From Nitrospinae bacterium CG11_big_fil_rev_8_21_14_0_20_45_15 (GTDB lineage Bacteria; Nitrospinota; Nitrospinia; Nitrospinales; VA-1): a stretch of 64,000 nucleotides of DNA. The position numbers and the translations under genes are program-made. Every line of letters begins with the position of its first letter. Position 1 is the stretch's first letter. The stretch is from contig PCWG01000010.1 of NCBI GenBank assembly GCA_002787235.1, forward strand, positions 13,680 to 77,679. Reading direction: 5' to 3'. This document shows, piece by piece, positions 23,642 through 62,343 of the stretch. The notes beneath the pieces were generated by a model. The model worked only from the letters and a program-made list of their open reading frames with translations, made no database searches and was not told where the DNA came from.

Positions 23642-23772
23642 ACCACGCTTGAAAAGCTTCCGCGGATAGTTTCCTGATTATCAGGAGGGGTACGAATTAT
23701 CTTTCAGGGAGGGGCACTCTATTTGCTACGAACAAGCGGGGTCAGGTCCAATGGCAGGTACTGCCTGCCCGG

Positions 23773-24006
23773 TCAGCGGGCTGTGAACTTCAGGTACTCG
23801 CCCCAGGCCACAACGGCAAAACCGATCAACAAAATCCATACCGGGCGCAAGACGTCATCGGGTTTCATGAAATACAAAATAAACATGAAAGCCACCCCCG
23901 TCATGACAATGAGGATGCCAGAAAAGGCGGTATTGATGCCTTTTTTGAAGCGGTCAGGATCTTTCAATTCTTTGATGACTTCCGGCTTGAGCTCTACATT
24001 CCACAT
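23773..24006 (-). CDS. Small membrane protein (2 TM)
   Basis: 77 aa with two clear hydrophobic helices. Lies 27 nt downstream of the larE-like gene on the same strand. Preferred over the overlapping + strand ORF 23723..24022. Confidence 0.45.
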   Translation of the reverse strand: MWNVELKPEVIKELKDPDRFKKGINTAFSGILIVMTGVAFMFILYFMKPDDVLRPVWILLIGFAVVAWGEYLKFTAR

Positions 24007-44355: not shown

Positions 44356-44928
44356 ATGAAGAAACCTTTTGATGACCAACCCATCGAGGTATTGGTCGAA
44401 GAAGCTTTGAAACGAAGCAAAACTGTTCTGGACTTGCGTCTCAAATACATCGGCGACGAGGGGGTCGAATTTCTTGCGAACTGTTTTGATCTGGACGGGA
44501 TTGAGGAATTGAATCTGGAACGCAACAACATCACGGATCGCGGAGCGCGTGCGTTGGCGGAGTCACCTGTACTCACGCGTCTGAAAGTCCTCATCCTGCA
44601 ACGCAATGACATCGGGTCTGCGGGTGCGACTTCTATCGCGCGGTCTTCTAATGCTTCACGGCTCGTGCATCTGGATTTATGGAAAAACAAGGTCGGTCCT
44701 GAAGGTGCACAAGCTCTGGCGGACTCGATTCAACTGGTCAACCTGACGCGTCTGGATCTTGCTCAAAATAAAATTGGTGATGCGGGTGCGCTGGCTCTGG
44801 CGCAAAGTGCTACTTTGGGCGGGGTGAACTATCTCGATCTGTTTGGGAACGGTTTGACGGAGGAAGGTGTCCTGTCTGCTAAAGAATCGGAATTCTTCCA
44901 GCATATCCAGGATCTCGTCATCGGCTAG
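44356..44928 (+). CDS. Leucine-rich repeat protein, ribonuclease-inhibitor (RNI/LRR_6) type
   Basis: 190 aa. About six 28-residue repeats of the form L-x-L-x-x-N-x-I-G-x-x-G-A-x-A-L-A (for example LDLAQNKIGDAGALALAQS). No signal peptide. Confidence 0.7.
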   Translation: MKKPFDDQPIEVLVEEALKRSKTVLDLRLKYIGDEGVEFLANCFDLDGIEELNLERNNITDRGARALAESPVLTRLKVLILQRNDIGSAGATSIARSSNASRLVHLDLWKNKVGPEGAQALADSIQLVNLTRLDLAQNKIGDAGALALAQSATLGGVNYLDLFGNGLTEEGVLSAKESEFFQHIQDLVIG

Positions 44929-45013
44929 CAGGTAACACCTGCTTGAATTAGAGATTGTGAAAAGACGCTGAAAAGTTGAATCAAGCACACTTGCTGTCCC
45001 GCTCCGGGACAGC
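44928..45013 (-). repeat. Solitary, inverted, diverged copy of the 89-bp repeat family found at 60776-61042
   Basis: Hand alignment to the reverse complement of the tandem unit gives roughly three quarters identity over about 80 bp, including the core GATTGTGAAAAGAC and TTGCTGTCCCGCTCCGG. It fills the gap between the convergent LRR and TPR genes. Confidence 0.7.
44993..45013. terminator. Perfect 9-bp stem / 3-nt loop hairpin between convergent genes (candidate bidirectional terminator)
   Basis: GCTGTCCCG-ctc-CGGGACAGC. Lies 65 nt after the LRR stop and 5 nt from the TPR gene stop. There is no strong U-tract on either side. Confidence 0.45.
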
Positions 45014-45018
45014 GAAAC

Positions 45019-46047
45019 TTATTTTACGCTTTGTATCTTGACCTGTTTACTGAAGGTTTCCTTGATAATTTGAATTTTGCTACGGACCCGATCCAGACTG
45101 TTTGAGGAAGCCAATCGTGTGGGATGGTATTTGTCCTCATAGTTTTTCTCACCGATTTCCAATGCCTTGGCGTACAAAGGCTGTGCTTTGGAATATTCGC
45201 CTAATTTCTCGTACATATCGGCCAGATTGTTCAGGGCAATGGCAATGTTTGGATGGTTCGGCCCCAGTGTTTTCTCGCTGATGAGTACGGCACGGCGATA
45301 CAGGGGAACGGCCAGATTGTATTCACCCATCGTTGCGTAAAGCAAGGCCAGGTTATTGAGCGATGCGGCAACGTTCGGATGATTGGCCCCCAGTGTCCTC
45401 TCGCTGATTTCGAGGGATCGTATTTCCCATGGCTCCGCTTTTTTGTATTCCCTCTGCGCGGAATAAAGACCCGACAACAGATTGGAAGAAATGGCTATGT
45501 TCGGATGAAACGGTCCGAGTTTCTTTTCACGTAAGTCCAGTGCGTGCCGATGCAGGGTTTCTGCATTTTGGAATTCGCCCAGGTAAGAATAAAGAAGCCC
45601 TTGATTGTCCAGTGAAATGGCGACTTTTAAATGTTCGGGTCCCAATGTTTTTTCTATGATTTCCAAAGACCGTCTGTATAAAGGACGAGCCTCGTTGTAA
45701 TTCCCCAAGGTCGCATGAACCAAAGCGAGATTGTTCAGAGAAACTGCCAGATTGGGGTGCGCGGCACCCAGTTCCTTCTCGCGTATTTCAACTGCTTTTT
45801 TCGCAGGCATCAGGGCGTCCTGATATTTCCCCATTTTATACAGGGAGATCACTTCTCGGTTGAATTTTTCACCCTCATCGGAATTTTGTGCAGCTGCGGT
45901 GGATACAAAAATTAACAAAACGCCGAGCGCAATTAAAATATGGGAACTGCGTCGAAGAACTGAAGAAAAAAACATGGTTTGATTTTCCTCTCTGATCTTG
46001 AATGCCAAGGCAGATAAATATTTAGGATGGTGTGTTTTCAATCTCAT
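45019..46047 (-). CDS. TPR repeat protein, kinesin-light-chain-like (TPR_10/12 type)
   Basis: 342 aa. N-terminal hydrophobic segment, then repeated 42-residue units (NLALLYATMGEYNLAVPLYRRAV.I.EKTLGPNHPN) typical of KLC-type TPRs. Confidence 0.8.
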   Translation of the reverse strand: MRLKTHHPKYLSALAFKIREENQTMFFSSVLRRSSHILIALGVLLIFVSTAAAQNSDEGEKFNREVISLYKMGKYQDALMPAKKAVEIREKELGAAHPNLAVSLNNLALVHATLGNYNEARPLYRRSLEIIEKTLGPEHLKVAISLDNQGLLYSYLGEFQNAETLHRHALDLREKKLGPFHPNIAISSNLLSGLYSAQREYKKAEPWEIRSLEISERTLGANHPNVAASLNNLALLYATMGEYNLAVPLYRRAVLISEKTLGPNHPNIAIALNNLADMYEKLGEYSKAQPLYAKALEIGEKNYEDKYHPTRLASSNSLDRVRSKIQIIKETFSKQVKIQSVK

Positions 46048-54487: not shown

Positions 54488-54537
54488 AAGCCTTTCGGCT
54501 ATGGGTTTTCAAAACCCACCGAAAGGCTTTTTTGTTT
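54488..54537 (+). terminator. Rho-independent terminator downstream of trxA (bidirectional geometry)
   Basis: AAGCCTTTCGG (54488-54498) pairs with CCGAAAGGCTT (54519-54529), with inner pairing GGGTTT/AAACCC. Followed by TTTTTGTTT and preceded by an A-rich tract. Confidence 0.85.
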
Positions 54538-54641
54538 CAGCTATCAGCAAACATTCAGGAATATAAAACAACTCCCGGTTCTATGATTCCTGAAAAACAT
54601 CCACGAAGTACTCCCCCTGCCTCTATTGATCCCCTGCCCTG

Positions 54642-56933: not shown

Positions 56934-57884
56934 ATGATTCTTGTCACCGGTTCCGCCGGATTCATAGGTTTTAATTTGAGCAAAACCCTGCTAGAGCGAG
57001 GCACAACAGTCGTCGGCATGGACAATATGAACGACTACTACGATGTCTCTTTGAAACGCGATCGTCTGGCTCAATTGCAAAAGTATGACAACTTCCATTT
57101 CAAGCAATTGGACCTTTGCGATCTGGAGGGCCTCGCAGACCTGTTCCGTGATTTCAAAATCACAAAAATCTGCCATTTAGCGGCCCAGGTGGGTGTGCGC
57201 TATTCCCTGCTCAATCCCCATGCCTACCAAAAATCGAATCTGGAAGGTTTTCTGAACATCATCGAACAGGCACGACTCGCACAGGTCGAAAATTTTGTAT
57301 TTGCATCGTCCTCTTCCGTGTACGGCAACAACAAAAAAATTCCGTTCTCTACCGACGATCCCTGCGACATGCCCATTTCTTTCTACGCCGCCAGCAAACG
57401 ATCCAATGAATTGACCGCGCACGTATACAGTCATTTATACGGATTGAACACAACGGGTCTGAGATTTTTCACCGTTTACGGTCCCTGGGGACGCCCCGAC
57501 ATGGCTCCTTTTATTTTCACCCGCAAAATTTTGCAGGGAGAAACCATCGACGTTTACGGGCGCGGCAAAATGAAACGAAACTTCACCTACGTGGACGACA
57601 TTGTGCAGGGAGTGGTACTTTGTCTGGACCGACCTCAAAAATACGCAATCTATAATATCGGGAACGACCGCACGGAAGAGTTGGAGCATTTCATTTCGGT
57701 CATCGAAAACCTGGCCGGTAAGCAAGCCATACGCAATGAGATGGACACGCAACCGGGGGAGATGACGGAAACCTGGGCGGATATTGAGCCAATCAAAAAT
57801 GATTGCGGCTACCGACCCACGACAAGGATCGAAGAAGGCATGAAAAATTTTATCGACTGGTACCGAAGCTACTACAAAGCCTGA
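56934..57884 (+). CDS. NAD-dependent epimerase/dehydratase (UDP-glucuronate 4-epimerase-like)
   Basis: 316 aa. GSAGFIGFNL Rossmann motif, catalytic YAASK, TGLRFFTVYGPWGRPDMA block. Confidence 0.9.
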   Translation: MILVTGSAGFIGFNLSKTLLERGTTVVGMDNMNDYYDVSLKRDRLAQLQKYDNFHFKQLDLCDLEGLADLFRDFKITKICHLAAQVGVRYSLLNPHAYQKSNLEGFLNIIEQARLAQVENFVFASSSSVYGNNKKIPFSTDDPCDMPISFYAASKRSNELTAHVYSHLYGLNTTGLRFFTVYGPWGRPDMAPFIFTRKILQGETIDVYGRGKMKRNFTYVDDIVQGVVLCLDRPQKYAIYNIGNDRTEELEHFISVIENLAGKQAIRNEMDTQPGEMTETWADIEPIKNDCGYRPTTRIEEGMKNFIDWYRSYYKA

Positions 57885-58093
57885 GCGGCAAACTGCCGCC
57901 AGCAAATGGCTATTCCCATTAAGACAATGGGGCAAAATCGTGCGCAATCTTTGCTCACCCTATTTCCGGCACACCTGACATACGGCGAGCCGCCGCCCGC
58001 CAGACGAGAGCGAATGAGCGATTCTCTTTAAGATAGCTTCAAGGCCAAGCACAACCTTTGCTCGCCCTATTCACAGCAAGCTTGGACTTCAAC

Positions 58094-58363
58094 TCAGATT
58101 TCTTTGCAGATTTTTTTAGCAGGAGGGATGGATTGGCATTCTATGGTTTCCGTCATTCCATTGGCGAGACCCCCACAGGCCGTGCTCATACCCGTCATCA
58201 CCGTATCTTCCAGGCTCATGCCTTTGACTTTTTGGCACTCTTCCAGGCCTTTATACTGCATACAAATCTCGCACTCGTACTTGCTCCCCCCCCAAATCAA
58301 AGAAACAGAGAGTCCGCAGACCAGAACCAGAAAGCCTATCGTTATGACCGTTCCTTTTTTCAT
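58094..58363 (-). CDS. Small membrane-anchored Cys-rich protein
   Basis: 89 aa. N-terminal hydrophobic anchor, then CEIC...C...C...C...C (6 Cys). Its ATG overlaps the orn stop (ATGA). Confidence 0.5.
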   Translation of the reverse strand: MKKGTVITIGFLVLVCGLSVSLIWGGSKYECEICMQYKGLEECQKVKGMSLEDTVMTGMSTACGGLANGMTETIECQSIPPAKKICKEI

Positions 58364-60077: not shown

Positions 60078-60317
60078 ATGTTGGTTTTAACGCGAAAAGT
60101 TGGCGAAAGCATAAAGATTAATGACGATATAAAAATAACCGTTATAGAAGTGAAGGGCAAAAATATTCGGATTGGTATCGAAGCCCCCAGTGCCACCAAA
60201 ATATACAGAGAAGAGGTTTTTATCAAGATTCTCGAGGAAAACCAATCCGCGGCGGCAACCCCAAAGGTTGATTTTGGAAAAATTTCTCAACTGATCAAAA
60301 AAAACTTAAAGCCATGA
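60078..60317 (+). CDS. csrA: Carbon storage regulator / translational regulator CsrA
   Basis: 79 aa. MLVLTRKVGESIKINDDIKITVIEVKGKNIRIGIEAPSATKIYREEV is the canonical CsrA fold sequence, with a C-terminal extension. Confidence 0.95.
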   Translation: MLVLTRKVGESIKINDDIKITVIEVKGKNIRIGIEAPSATKIYREEVFIKILEENQSAAATPKVDFGKISQLIKKNLKP

Positions 60318-60775
60318 AATTTGAAACCACTCGTTTTGGTCTTATAGAATACGACGAGGAAGACATTCTTCAATTCCCCGATGGCTTGTATGGCTTCGAA
60401 AGAGAAAAACAATTTGTCCTCATCCCTTTCGATCCCAACATCGACTGTCCGCTGGAATGGATGCAATCCCTGACCACGCCCGGACTGGCCTTTGTCGTCA
60501 CCGATCCTTATCTGTACATGCCTGATTATCGTTGGGTCATGACGCCCGAAGAGGAAAGACGAATCGAATTTTCTGGCGAGGATGAATTAAAAATACTCGT
60601 GATTGTCACTTTGCAGGAAATCTTTACAAACATGACGGGGAATTTTGTAGCCCCCTTAATCCTCAACTCACGCACCCAAAAAGCCAGACAAGTGGTACTG
60701 ACAACGCAGGAATACGATACCCGTCATTACTTGCTTCCTGAAGAAATCCGCAATGCGGGAGTAACCGCAAACTAA
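60314..60775 (+). CDS. fliW: Flagellar assembly factor FliW (CsrA antagonist)
   Basis: 153 aa. FPDGLYGFE, LEWMQS, AFVVTDPY and NFVAPLILN blocks of the FliW family. ATGA overlap with csrA. Confidence 0.9.
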   Translation: MKFETTRFGLIEYDEEDILQFPDGLYGFEREKQFVLIPFDPNIDCPLEWMQSLTTPGLAFVVTDPYLYMPDYRWVMTPEEERRIEFSGEDELKILVIVTLQEIFTNMTGNFVAPLILNSRTQKARQVVLTTQEYDTRHYLLPEEIRNAGVTAN

Positions 60776-61042
60776 CCCGCCGGAGCGGGACAGCAAAGAA
60801 TTTGGATTCAATCCCCACAGTGTCTTTTCACAATCCCTGATTCCCGCAGGCGTTGTCTGCCCTGCCCGCCGGAGCGGGACAGCAAAGAAATTAGATTCAA
60901 TCCCTACAGTGTCTTTTCACAATCCCTGATTCCCGCAGGCGTTGCCTGCCCTGCCCGCCGGAGCGGGACAGCAAAGAAATTAGATTCAATCCCCACAGTG
61001 TCTTTTCACAATCCCTGATTCCCGCAGGCGTTGTCTGCCCTG
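60776..61042 (+). repeat. Three head-to-tail copies of an 89-bp structured repeat
   Basis: Units 60776-60864, 60865-60953 and 60954-61042, each exactly 89 bp. Units 1 and 2 each differ from unit 3 by 2 mismatches. The array starts 1 nt after the fliW TAA and ends inside the 3' end of the convergent ORF 61006..62343. Confidence 0.95.
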
Positions 61043-62343
61043 CCAAAAGCCATCAAGTAGGTTTCAAATTCCTCATAACTGCTGTTCGCATCCGCATAAA
61101 TATAACTCTGTCGCGAAGACGAGTTGAGCGCGAAGTTGACCCTTTGCAGACTTTGACCATCGACGAACATCAATTCAGTCCAAGGCAAATCCGCACAGAA
61201 ATCACGATTGGTTTTGAGGAATTTTATAAAATTCTGAAAACCTTTGACGCACAAATCCGCATGCAAACCTTCCAGATCGCAAACGACTCGCAATTTAGTG
61301 TTATTGTTTTTGGTGTAGCCTTCCAGCTTGATCGCGAGAGATTGATCTTCAGTGATTTTCTTTTTAGTTGGCCGCTTCGCAAACGCTTTCACAATCTGCT
61401 CCGGTGCCAGGTCGAATCTTACCGTCGTGTCAAAATCTCCCCGGATCAACGTATTGAAACGGTGGATTTCCAACTCCCCCCAATGCTGAGACTGGAGAAC
61501 CGGATCCGCACTCGCCACGGCAATATTTTCGGCTCCCCGCAAACATTCTTCATTAGAAACTTCGAGATCGCAAAAGAGTTTGACCACTCCCAGACGGGAT
61601 CGGATGGTTTCTCCAAAGCGTTCCTCCATCGTCTCAAACATTTTTCGACGCGCATCCCAAATCTCGTTTAAATCCGATTCGAGACGCTCATGCATGACTT
61701 GAGGACTTTCCGAAAAACCAATCGACAGAGCATAAGCATCCTGCAAACGACTGGACTCGGGGGTCAAAACCACACTTCTCCATCGTTTAAAACGAGTCTC
61801 ACCGCTAGCCAGAGCCTCAGAAAGACTTTCGTAGCCTTGCAGGCAATGAGTGTTGGAAACCTGCTGATTGCAATACAAATTGACAATGCCCAACTGTGAA
61901 ATAATCTTGTTCTTTAAGGCAACAATCTTCTCGATAAATTCAGCCTGTTCTTCCTGTGAAGGCCTGTCATTTAAAAATTTGATGAGCGTGTCCGCTGAAG
62001 TGTCCCAGGGGATGAGGGCGGTCTGAAATCCACCCGTCCTCAAAAATTCCTGGCTCACCCCAAAGGTATGGTATGGAGAACCTTGCACTTGAGGCAGTGC
62101 CTGCTCCAGAATCCTGGCTCCCTGCAGACATTTTTGTAATAAATCCGACGGGTCTCTATCGATTTTTTTTATAAAAGGGAAACACTCCAGTCCGGTCAAT
62201 CCAAACTGTTTTTCCAAAGATCGTTTTGTATTCAATAGTTCATGAAAACTATTGGGCTGAAGCTCAACAGCCAATGAAGATGCAGGAACAAGCAGTCCAA
62301 AAAAAAAGCAGGAAATTAAAAAAATAAGGAGTCTATGTAACAT
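61006..62343 (-). CDS. Secreted hypothetical protein built from four Cys-pair modules
   Basis: 445 aa with a signal peptide (LLVPASSLAVE). Four modules of about 100 aa, each carrying C-x8-17-C-[LV]-x-G (CNQQVSNTHCLQG, CDLEVSNEECLRG, CDLEGLHADLCVKG, CFPF...QKCLQG). The last 12 codons lie inside repeat unit 3. Confidence 0.65.
   Translation of the reverse strand: MLHRLLIFLISCFFFGLLVPASSLAVELQPNSFHELLNTKRSLEKQFGLTGLECFPFIKKIDRDPSDLLQKCLQGARILEQALPQVQGSPYHTFGVSQEFLRTGGFQTALIPWDTSADTLIKFLNDRPSQEEQAEFIEKIVALKNKIISQLGIVNLYCNQQVSNTHCLQGYESLSEALASGETRFKRWRSVVLTPESSRLQDAYALSIGFSESPQVMHERLESDLNEIWDARRKMFETMEERFGETIRSRLGVVKLFCDLEVSNEECLRGAENIAVASADPVLQSQHWGELEIHRFNTLIRGDFDTTVRFDLAPEQIVKAFAKRPTKKKITEDQSLAIKLEGYTKNNNTKLRVVCDLEGLHADLCVKGFQNFIKFLKTNRDFCADLPWTELMFVDGQSLQRVNFALNSSSRQSYIYADANSSYEEFETYLMAFGRADNACGNQGL

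Follow-up and report, generated by a model that had tools for sequence, protein, structure and literature searches.

In Enterobacteria, Pseudomonas and Stenotrophomonas, GC-rich repetitive extragenic palindromic (REP) sequences are combined into regularly spaced composite arrays, the bacterial interspersed mosaic elements (BIMEs). Within the Neisseria intergenic mosaic elements (NIMEs), short dRS3 inverted repeats separate repeat sequence (RS) units of 50-150 bp that belong to exchangeable families (PMC1797815). Here, we describe a repeat family of a species group of uncultured Nitrospinae from Crystal Geyser, found in a 64,000-nucleotide stretch (the window) of contig PCWG01000010.1 of Nitrospinae bacterium CG11_big_fil_rev_8_21_14_0_20_45_15. 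The element in question is an array of three 89-nt units located directly behind the genes csrA and fliW. This array is probably one locus of a lineage-specific, strain-variable family of intergenic mosaic repeats, which forms BIME- or NIME-like arrays with exchangeable cores.

The units of the family share a common plan, in which a GC-rich palindrome of 5-9 bp with a loop of 3-4 nt (HP1) is followed by a core of ~55-65 nt and by a second GC-rich palindrome that is unlike the first (HP2). The core is AT-richer and contains the short conserved boxes CAATC, CT(A/G)(A/T)T(T/C) and GCAG in this order. Two core types were distinguished, type A (89 nt) and type B (96-98 nt), and the units are found singly or in head-to-tail arrays.

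The comparison with REP sequences and BIMEs reveals a general likeness. HP1 and HP2, with stems of 5-9 bp, are short GC-rich palindromes, all copies are intergenic, and the arrays are composite and regularly spaced. Also shared are a placement that varies by strain, a plausible role as stabiliser or attenuator in 3' untranslated regions (3'-UTRs), and the preference for gene 3' ends and convergent spacers, which excerpts of two articles describe for REP/BIME (PMC3184786; PMC2817692). In detail, the elements differ. The REP sequences of a BIME alternate in orientation, according to an excerpt of PMC2817692, whereas the units described here are strictly head-to-tail, and HP1 and HP2 are unrelated and not inverted copies of each other. 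The stems are also shorter than those of REP sequences. The tetranucleotide GTAG or CGTC at one end of the palindrome, named as a REP hallmark in an excerpt of PMC3733652, was not found by direct reading of the palindrome flanks, CCTG/CCCGCC...GCGGG/ACAG and TCCC/GCAGGC...GCCTGC/CCTG (slashes mark the palindrome ends).

With NIMEs the family has in common that short palindromes separate exchangeable-family units of 50-150 bp, that the G+C content forms a wave between GC-rich palindromes and AT-richer units, and that arrays at syntenic positions differ from strain to strain in the number and kinds of their units (PMC1797815). It is distinguished from NIMEs by two different palindromes per junction instead of one and by the host phylum; a link to phage recombinase or surface-antigen genes, as in NIMEs, was not seen here. 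The arrays lack the dRS3 consensus ATTCCCN8GGGAAT; if up to 2 mismatches are allowed, 4 matches occur elsewhere in the window, at the level of chance (4.8 expected). Mycobacterial interspersed repetitive units (MIRUs) vary in unit number between strains, as the arrays here do, and carry short open reading frames (ORFs) that overlap the flanking genes. Such a coding, MIRU-like ORF was rejected for the tandem array, which has stops in every frame; a protein search with the six-frame translation of the array gave no scoring match. Like the units here, MIRUs are dispersed, 40-100 bp long and arranged in intergenic head-to-tail arrays (PMC3184786), but they lie within operons, whereas the units of the present family are located between convergent genes, are bounded by palindromes and have lengths (89, 96 and 98 nt) that are not always divisible by 3.

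Two further element types were rejected on inspection of the units. A miniature inverted-repeat transposable element would require terminal inverted repeats and a target-site duplication, neither of which was found by direct reading of the ends, and an attC-like site does not agree with a unit that does not fold as one long hairpin. Similar DNA was found neither in IMG/VR (junction-motif scan) nor among plasmids and phages (blastn). The conserved core GTCTTTTCACAATCNCTNATTC, used as an exact pattern, gave one chance match each among JGI metagenome and GTDB genome contigs, and these collections evidently do not contain this genome. The chance matches are located in a coding region of L011 and in a metagenome-assembled genome of Spartobacteria in L012; here and below, L-numbers are labels of metagenome contigs, those that carry orthologous or related loci included. 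The REP/BIME-like family between convergent genes that the initial annotation of this DNA had considered as one of two options was right in kind, but, as judged from its sequence, the family carries none of the signatures by which REP, BIME or NIME are defined.

The array behind fliW and its related loci

Behind fliW, Tandem Repeats Finder (TRF) detects an array at 60776-61044 with a period of 89 nt and 3.0 copies (96% matches, 0 indels, score 510); elsewhere in the window, it reports no array of long period. The first unit begins 1 nt past the fliW TAA, and the array was analysed on the strand of csrA and fliW (+). It comprises three type-A units of 89 nt, at 60776-60864, 60865-60953 and 60954-61044, the last of which includes 2 nt of a fourth phase. 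Relative to unit 3, both unit 1 and unit 2 have 2 mismatches. The unit-initial 18-mer CCCGCCGGAGCGGGACAG occurs exactly 3 times, while 0.02 matches are expected from shuffled sequences if up to 3 mismatches are allowed.

HP1 has the sequence CCCGC-cgga-GCGGG and is located at 60776-60789, 60865-60878 and 60954-60967, where CTG/CAG can extend it across the junction between units. The sequence of HP2, at 60846-60860, 60935-60949 and 61024-61038, is GCAGGC-gtt-G(T/C)CTGC, which forms a perfect 6-bp stem in unit 2. At a junction, as exemplified by the hairpin scan at 60935-60967, HP2 (GCAGGC-gtt-GCCTGC) is followed by CCTG and then by HP1. The G+C content of this junction is 82% and that of the 56-nt core 39%, compared to 47% for the window. 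The three exactly phased units abutting the fliW stop and both hairpins had been described in the initial annotation, and TRF, the unit comparison and the presence of HP1 and HP2 in all three units confirm this description.

With nhmmer, a hidden Markov model (HMM) of the family built from 11 units matches the window at exactly three places, namely 60776-61044, 44923-45012 and 57878-58092. Beyond the window, no further locus was found with this model in the 10 kb to its left (L015) or the 6.7 kb to its right (L001). The locus at 44923-45012 is a solitary, diverged type-A unit on the minus strand (E = 1.5e-9 in a separate nhmmer search), with a 9-bp HP1 stem, the loop GAG, and GCAGGT-gtt-ACCTGC as HP2. 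It fills the entire 90-nt spacer between a leucine-rich repeat (LRR) gene (44356-44928, +) and a tetratricopeptide repeat (TPR) gene (45019-46047, -); the TAG of the LRR gene overlaps HP2 by 1 nt, and the stop of the TPR gene lies 6 nt from HP1. The initial annotation had noticed this copy, placing it at 44928-45013 without giving a strand; the copy is real, and its bounds and orientation are those stated here.

The third locus was absent from the initial annotation and was recognised with units from contigs L013 and L014 as queries. It consists of two degenerate type-B units on the plus strand. The first (57878-57981; E = 5.8e-23 with the family HMM) is located directly behind the stop of an epimerase gene (56934-57884, +), the TGA of which abuts HP1; its HP1 is GCGGCA-aac-TGCCGC, and its HP2 has decayed. 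The second (57982-58092; E = 4.4e-19) ends a few nt short of the stop of a convergent 89-aa gene (~58094-58363, -).

All three loci are thus convergent gene spacers that the repeat fills between one stop codon and the other; in some cases it also provides the last codons and the stop of a flanking gene. Convergent junctions make up ~10 of the ~55 in the gene map of the window, so that the location of all three elements in such spacers has a hypergeometric P of roughly 0.005. A placement bias toward gene 3' ends and convergent spacers is also reported for REP sequences and for SPRITEs (PMC3184786).

The genes preceding the array, csrA (60078-60317) and fliW (60314-60775), share 4 nt on the plus strand and form a flanking operon outside the repeat, as assigned from ORFs, the Pfam families CsrA and FliW, and NCBI names. 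The CsrA, FliW, 445-aa and PFK proteins of this region correspond to PIR01251-PIR01254 of the CG11 metagenome-assembled genome (exact matches). In another convergent spacer, at 23753-23781, a solitary GC-rich double hairpin was observed, in which GGCAGG-tactg-CCTGCC overlaps GCCCG-gtcag-CGGGC; ~30 nt upstream of it, the sequence CACTCTATTT corresponds to the end of the core of type B. This double hairpin has the appearance of a relict family junction, although nhmmer does not detect it.

Turnover of units between strains

The three sites were compared with those of close and more distant strains. Contigs L013 and L014 derive from a sister strain (JGI 3300077088, 3300078396), and L023 has 88% protein identity in the 445-aa gene that faces fliW; the flanks show ~90% nucleotide identity. 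L028 has 96% identity in the neighbouring aminopeptidase, L029-L031 belong to a relative with 81% identity, and L019 and L020-22 have protein identities of 71% and 64%, respectively.

At the fliW site, the boundaries of the inserted sequence are identical in the window, L013 and L023 (left, ...AAACTAA/CC; right, .../CCAAAAG), whereas the contents differ: three type-A units in the window, one degenerate type-A unit and two 96-nt type-B units in L013/L014, and a single type-B unit in L023. At the LRR/TPR site, the one type-A unit of the window contrasts with a 270-nt A-B-A mosaic in L028. The spacer between the epimerase and the 89-aa gene contains two degenerate type-B units in the window, two 98-nt type-B units with 97% identity in L013, and at least two type-B units in L023. 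Within an array the units are 93-98% identical; between loci or strains the identity falls to 55-75%, well under that of the flanking genes. In L019 and L020-22, csrA-fliW is still convergent to the 445-aa gene, but the spacers of 115 nt and 91 nt, respectively, are unrelated and show no match to the family.

At the LRR/TPR site, an array behind the LRR gene in L029 (5285-5498; also in L030 and L031) contains the palindrome variants CCGGGC-atg-GCCCGG and CCAGCG-tgg-CGCTGG, and the family is hence more diverse than types A and B. A tandem repeat of a different kind, 36 nt long and present in 8.7 copies (AAGAAAAAAGCAGCTACAAAAAAGAAAGCGGCTCCA), was seen in the distant Nitrospinae relative L020 (19867-20180); it is unrelated to the family and probably represents a lysine/alanine-rich coding repeat.

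Fixed boundaries, exchangeable cores, and high identity within but low identity between arrays fit a combination of slippage or unequal crossing-over with overwriting. Slippage or unequal crossing-over between units would lengthen and shorten the arrays, and recombination or gene conversion involving other members of the family would replace their contents. Expansion and overwriting by recombination have likewise been proposed for the NIME arrays of Neisseria (PMC1797815). The conserved palindromes are probably the recombination or recognition sites of a putative enzyme.

Several observations weigh against a mosaic repeat family of this kind. No RAYT (Y1 transposase) or other recombinase was found among the Pfam families of the called genes, which cover the window from ~35000 onward and ~10 kb past each end, with 11400-35100 uncovered. 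A pair of empty and filled sites among close strains was not found either, as look-ups with the thioredoxin and aminopeptidase genes returned the same population or filled sites. With neither a mobilising enzyme nor an empty/filled pair, mobility is inferred from the turnover. The genome-wide copy number is an extrapolation from ~81 kb of the genome and a few relative loci of 5-20 kb. For comparison, REP sequences number more than 100 in a genome and are associated with a RAYT transposase gene, whereas 3 loci were found in these ~81 kb. Moreover, part of the apparent variation could be technical: contigs L004, L007, L010 and L036 from four ENA samples contain exactly 1 unit at the fliW site and L001-L003, L005 and L006 contain 3, with 100% identical flanks, which could reflect assembly collapse and not a true polymorphism. 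Finally, HP1 beside the stop of the epimerase gene was kept through one clean compensatory change (GCGGCG/CGCCGC in L013, GCGGCA/TGCCGC in the window), which suggests that the hairpin itself may to some extent be under selection.

The effect of the repeat on coding sequence is best seen at the convergent neighbour of fliW, a Nitrospinae-specific conserved hypothetical gene of 445 aa (61006-62343, -). The ORF ends within unit 3 of the array, so that its final 12 codons, together with the TGA, are supplied by the repeat, a point absent from the initial annotation. Comparison of the C-termini shows that the conserved part of the protein stops at ...(A/S/K)FG (...AFG in the window), and that the tail RADNACGNQGL before the stop is translated from the repeat. 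In strains with the element, the tails RADNACGNQGL, REGNACGK and RAGNACGK correspond to translated HP2, whereas the tails in element-free relatives are unrelated. The gene remains convergent to csrA-fliW in relatives down to 64% identity. Its product has no Pfam domain, a signal-peptide-like N-terminus, and 47% identity to a protein of Candidatus Nitrohelix vancouverensis.

Hairpins, transcript ends and CsrA

The HP1 stems of the family occur in four different sequences, each of which is still self-complementary, and the loop is cgga, gag, aac, agc, caa, cag or tgg. For HP2, pairing is retained in 86.8% of the cells over 13 units, and a change on both sides of the stem is found in one unit only; the copy at 44923-45012 has the double change C-G to T-A. 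The wobble pair of HP2 is G.T on the plus strand in units 1 and 3 of the window array, while the same pair is A.C in the L013 units, corresponding to G.T on the minus strand. As the wobbles fall on either strand, the palindromes are not tuned to one transcript strand. In several units a hairpin has decayed, namely HP2 of the first type-B unit in the window, HP1 of the first unit at the fliW site of L013, and the HP1 arms in L028.

In the initial annotation, the HP2 structure was considered to be under selection, and a structure analysis of the aligned copies was suggested. The double change on which this was based is real, but the argument is weaker than stated, as it concerns one of 13 units and the wobbles occur on either strand. 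The covariation over the 13 units is not significant, the observed level being reached in 269 of 500 shuffles, and RNAalifold gave no consensus fold over the units. The folding energy of the array is no better than that of shuffled sequences on either strand (z = -1.2 and -1.7). What is conserved is a pair of short palindromes and not a particular structured RNA. Such a pair would fit DNA-level recognition or the formation of simple hairpins in RNA from one strand or the other.

A role of these hairpins at transcript ends has to be considered next to the mosaic family, with which it is compatible rather than exclusive. The units may constitute a selected 3'-end module, the hairpins of which are kept because they attenuate or insulate transcription in both directions and block 3'-to-5' exonucleases for both convergent genes, as is shown for REP sequences of E. 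coli. The units would then primarily be a regulatory device of the host and not a selfish or neutral element; we consider this rather unlikely. It would be in agreement with the restriction of the loci to convergent spacers, tight against the stops, and with the compensatory change in HP1 at the epimerase locus. On the plus strand, the solitary copy reads as a hairpin of 11 bp with a T-rich tail behind it, and HP1 of unit 1 behind fliW is weakly terminator-like on the minus strand. According to an excerpt of a preprint on E. coli, REP sequences act as terminators that are partly Rho-dependent and as mRNA stabilisers, and their presence between convergent genes is correlated with an elevated expression of the two (bioRxiv 10.64898/2026.03.23.713779).

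However, most of the hairpins lack a U-tract, including HP1 and HP2 on the fliW strand, although the same genome contains a canonical bidirectional intrinsic terminator at 54490-54545, between a thioredoxin gene (+) and a 421-aa gene (-), where a long AAGCCTTTCGG...CCGAAAGGCTT hairpin is located between an A-run and a T-run. With such an ordinary U-tract terminator, the organism does not need the repeat for termination. The decay of hairpins in several units, the free variation of unit number and core type among close strains, and the fact that relatives manage without the element also speak against a dedicated module.

For the mosaic repeat family that we prefer, effects on the neighbouring genes are probably incidental, as for REP sequences, in that hairpins at the 3' end may stabilise or attenuate the convergent transcripts. 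Given the placement tight against stops in convergent spacers, REP-like side effects on 3'-end stability and read-through would be predicted by analogy. E. coli REP sequences less than ~15 nt from a stop codon are also said to stall terminating ribosomes, a point on which a literature search returned nothing; if this holds, HP1, which begins 1 nt past the fliW stop, could by the same analogy lower FliW output.

More speculative, and in our estimate a long shot, is the combination of such an element with a regulatory function of the opposite strand. In this scenario, a new type of recombination-driven mosaic element in Nitrospinota would rewrite the 3' ends of genes, with their stops and C-termini, the palindromes would be substrates of a recombinase, and the minus-strand 3' end of the 445-aa transcript, with its 9 GGA, would bind CsrA at a dose set by the number of units. 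The minus strand of the array has 9 GGA compared to ~6.7 expected. Each unit has three GGA on this strand, including CAGGGAUUG, and the sequence CAGGGAU of a minus-strand array transcript fits the CsrA core consensus.

The initial annotation had pointed to the plus strand and, as one of its two options, considered the array as a candidate GGA-hairpin RNA that titrates CsrA: a read-through csrA-fliW transcript, or an RNA derived from its 3'-UTR, would expose GGA in the HP1 loops and thereby sequester the CsrA encoded upstream. The array does abut fliW on the same strand and shows cGGA in the 4-nt HP1 loop three times. Its plus strand contains 7 GGA in 269 nt, compared to ~3 expected from the composition, and 3 of the 7 are loop-borne. 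Such a decoy would be novel, because FliW-type CsrA systems are described as lacking antagonising small RNAs (sRNAs) in an excerpt of PMC4894983.

Nevertheless, this function is very improbable. The loop is not conserved at the fliW site, where cgga in the window is replaced by CAA in L013/L014 and by CAG in L023, and the element is absent from this site in the relatives with 71% and 64% identity, which keep csrA-fliW. The identical CCCGC-cgga-GCGGG hairpin is found behind an unrelated LRR gene in L029, and the two other convergent spacers of the window that contain the family, in both orientations, are likewise unrelated to csrA. The annotation had itself held that a spread of the family over unrelated intergenic sites, with no bias toward csrA, would speak against a decoy, and this is the distribution found within the accessible sequence.

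The comparison with known CsrA-binding RNAs leads to the same result. The array resembles CsrB and RsmX-Y-Z (Rfam clan CL00106) in the presentation of GGA in a short hairpin loop, here three times. Unlike these RNAs, it has a low GGA density, orthologous arrays do not keep its loop GGA, members of the family are scattered over unrelated loci, and the array has no significant Rfam match and no promoter or terminator of its own. One loop GGA per 89 nt is far sparser than in CsrB or RsmY/Z. Neither a promoter-like site in the array nor a terminator-like site on its fliW (+) strand was found. The Rfam scan of the window gave nothing at the gathering score; in a permissive search of 1.2 kb, rsmX, a member of the CsrB/Rsm clan, matched at 60770-60877 on the minus strand with 17.5 bits (gathering score 56) and E = 1.3, i.e. 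at chance level. There is no specific relationship of the array with CsrA or FliW, and the GGA of HP1 is one of several interchangeable loops.

Finally, an assembly artefact or a CRISPR-like array is barely conceivable: short-read metagenome assemblies can mis-build tandem repeats, some contigs contain 1 unit instead of 3, and the 33-nt GC-rich junction with the 56-nt core superficially resembles a repeat-spacer layout, but an artefact is made unlikely by at least five independent assemblies, from JGI and ENA, in which all three units recur with identical sequence, and by the substitutions that distinguish these units, and CRISPR by 'spacers' that are 96-98% identical to each other and by the lack of a cas domain among the Pfam families of the called genes in the region searched for recombinases.

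Significance of the family

The most direct consequence is the removal of a tempting but unsupported explanation, an sRNA antagonist for a FliW-partnered CsrA. For metagenomics, the arrays are a warning for both annotation and assembly. The places at which they interrupt metagenome assemblies can be predicted: L008 and L009 are broken at the repeat, and the ends of L029-L031 lie within an array, in line with the usual behaviour of contigs at multi-copy repeats. They can also recode the last residues and the stop codons of flanking genes, as in the 445-aa protein. The variable arrays, in turn, could serve as strain markers for these populations. In a broader context, a previously undescribed repeat family is documented in an uncultured lineage related to nitrite oxidisers, and mosaic arrays in the style of BIMEs and NIMEs would thus arise outside the Proteobacteria as well.

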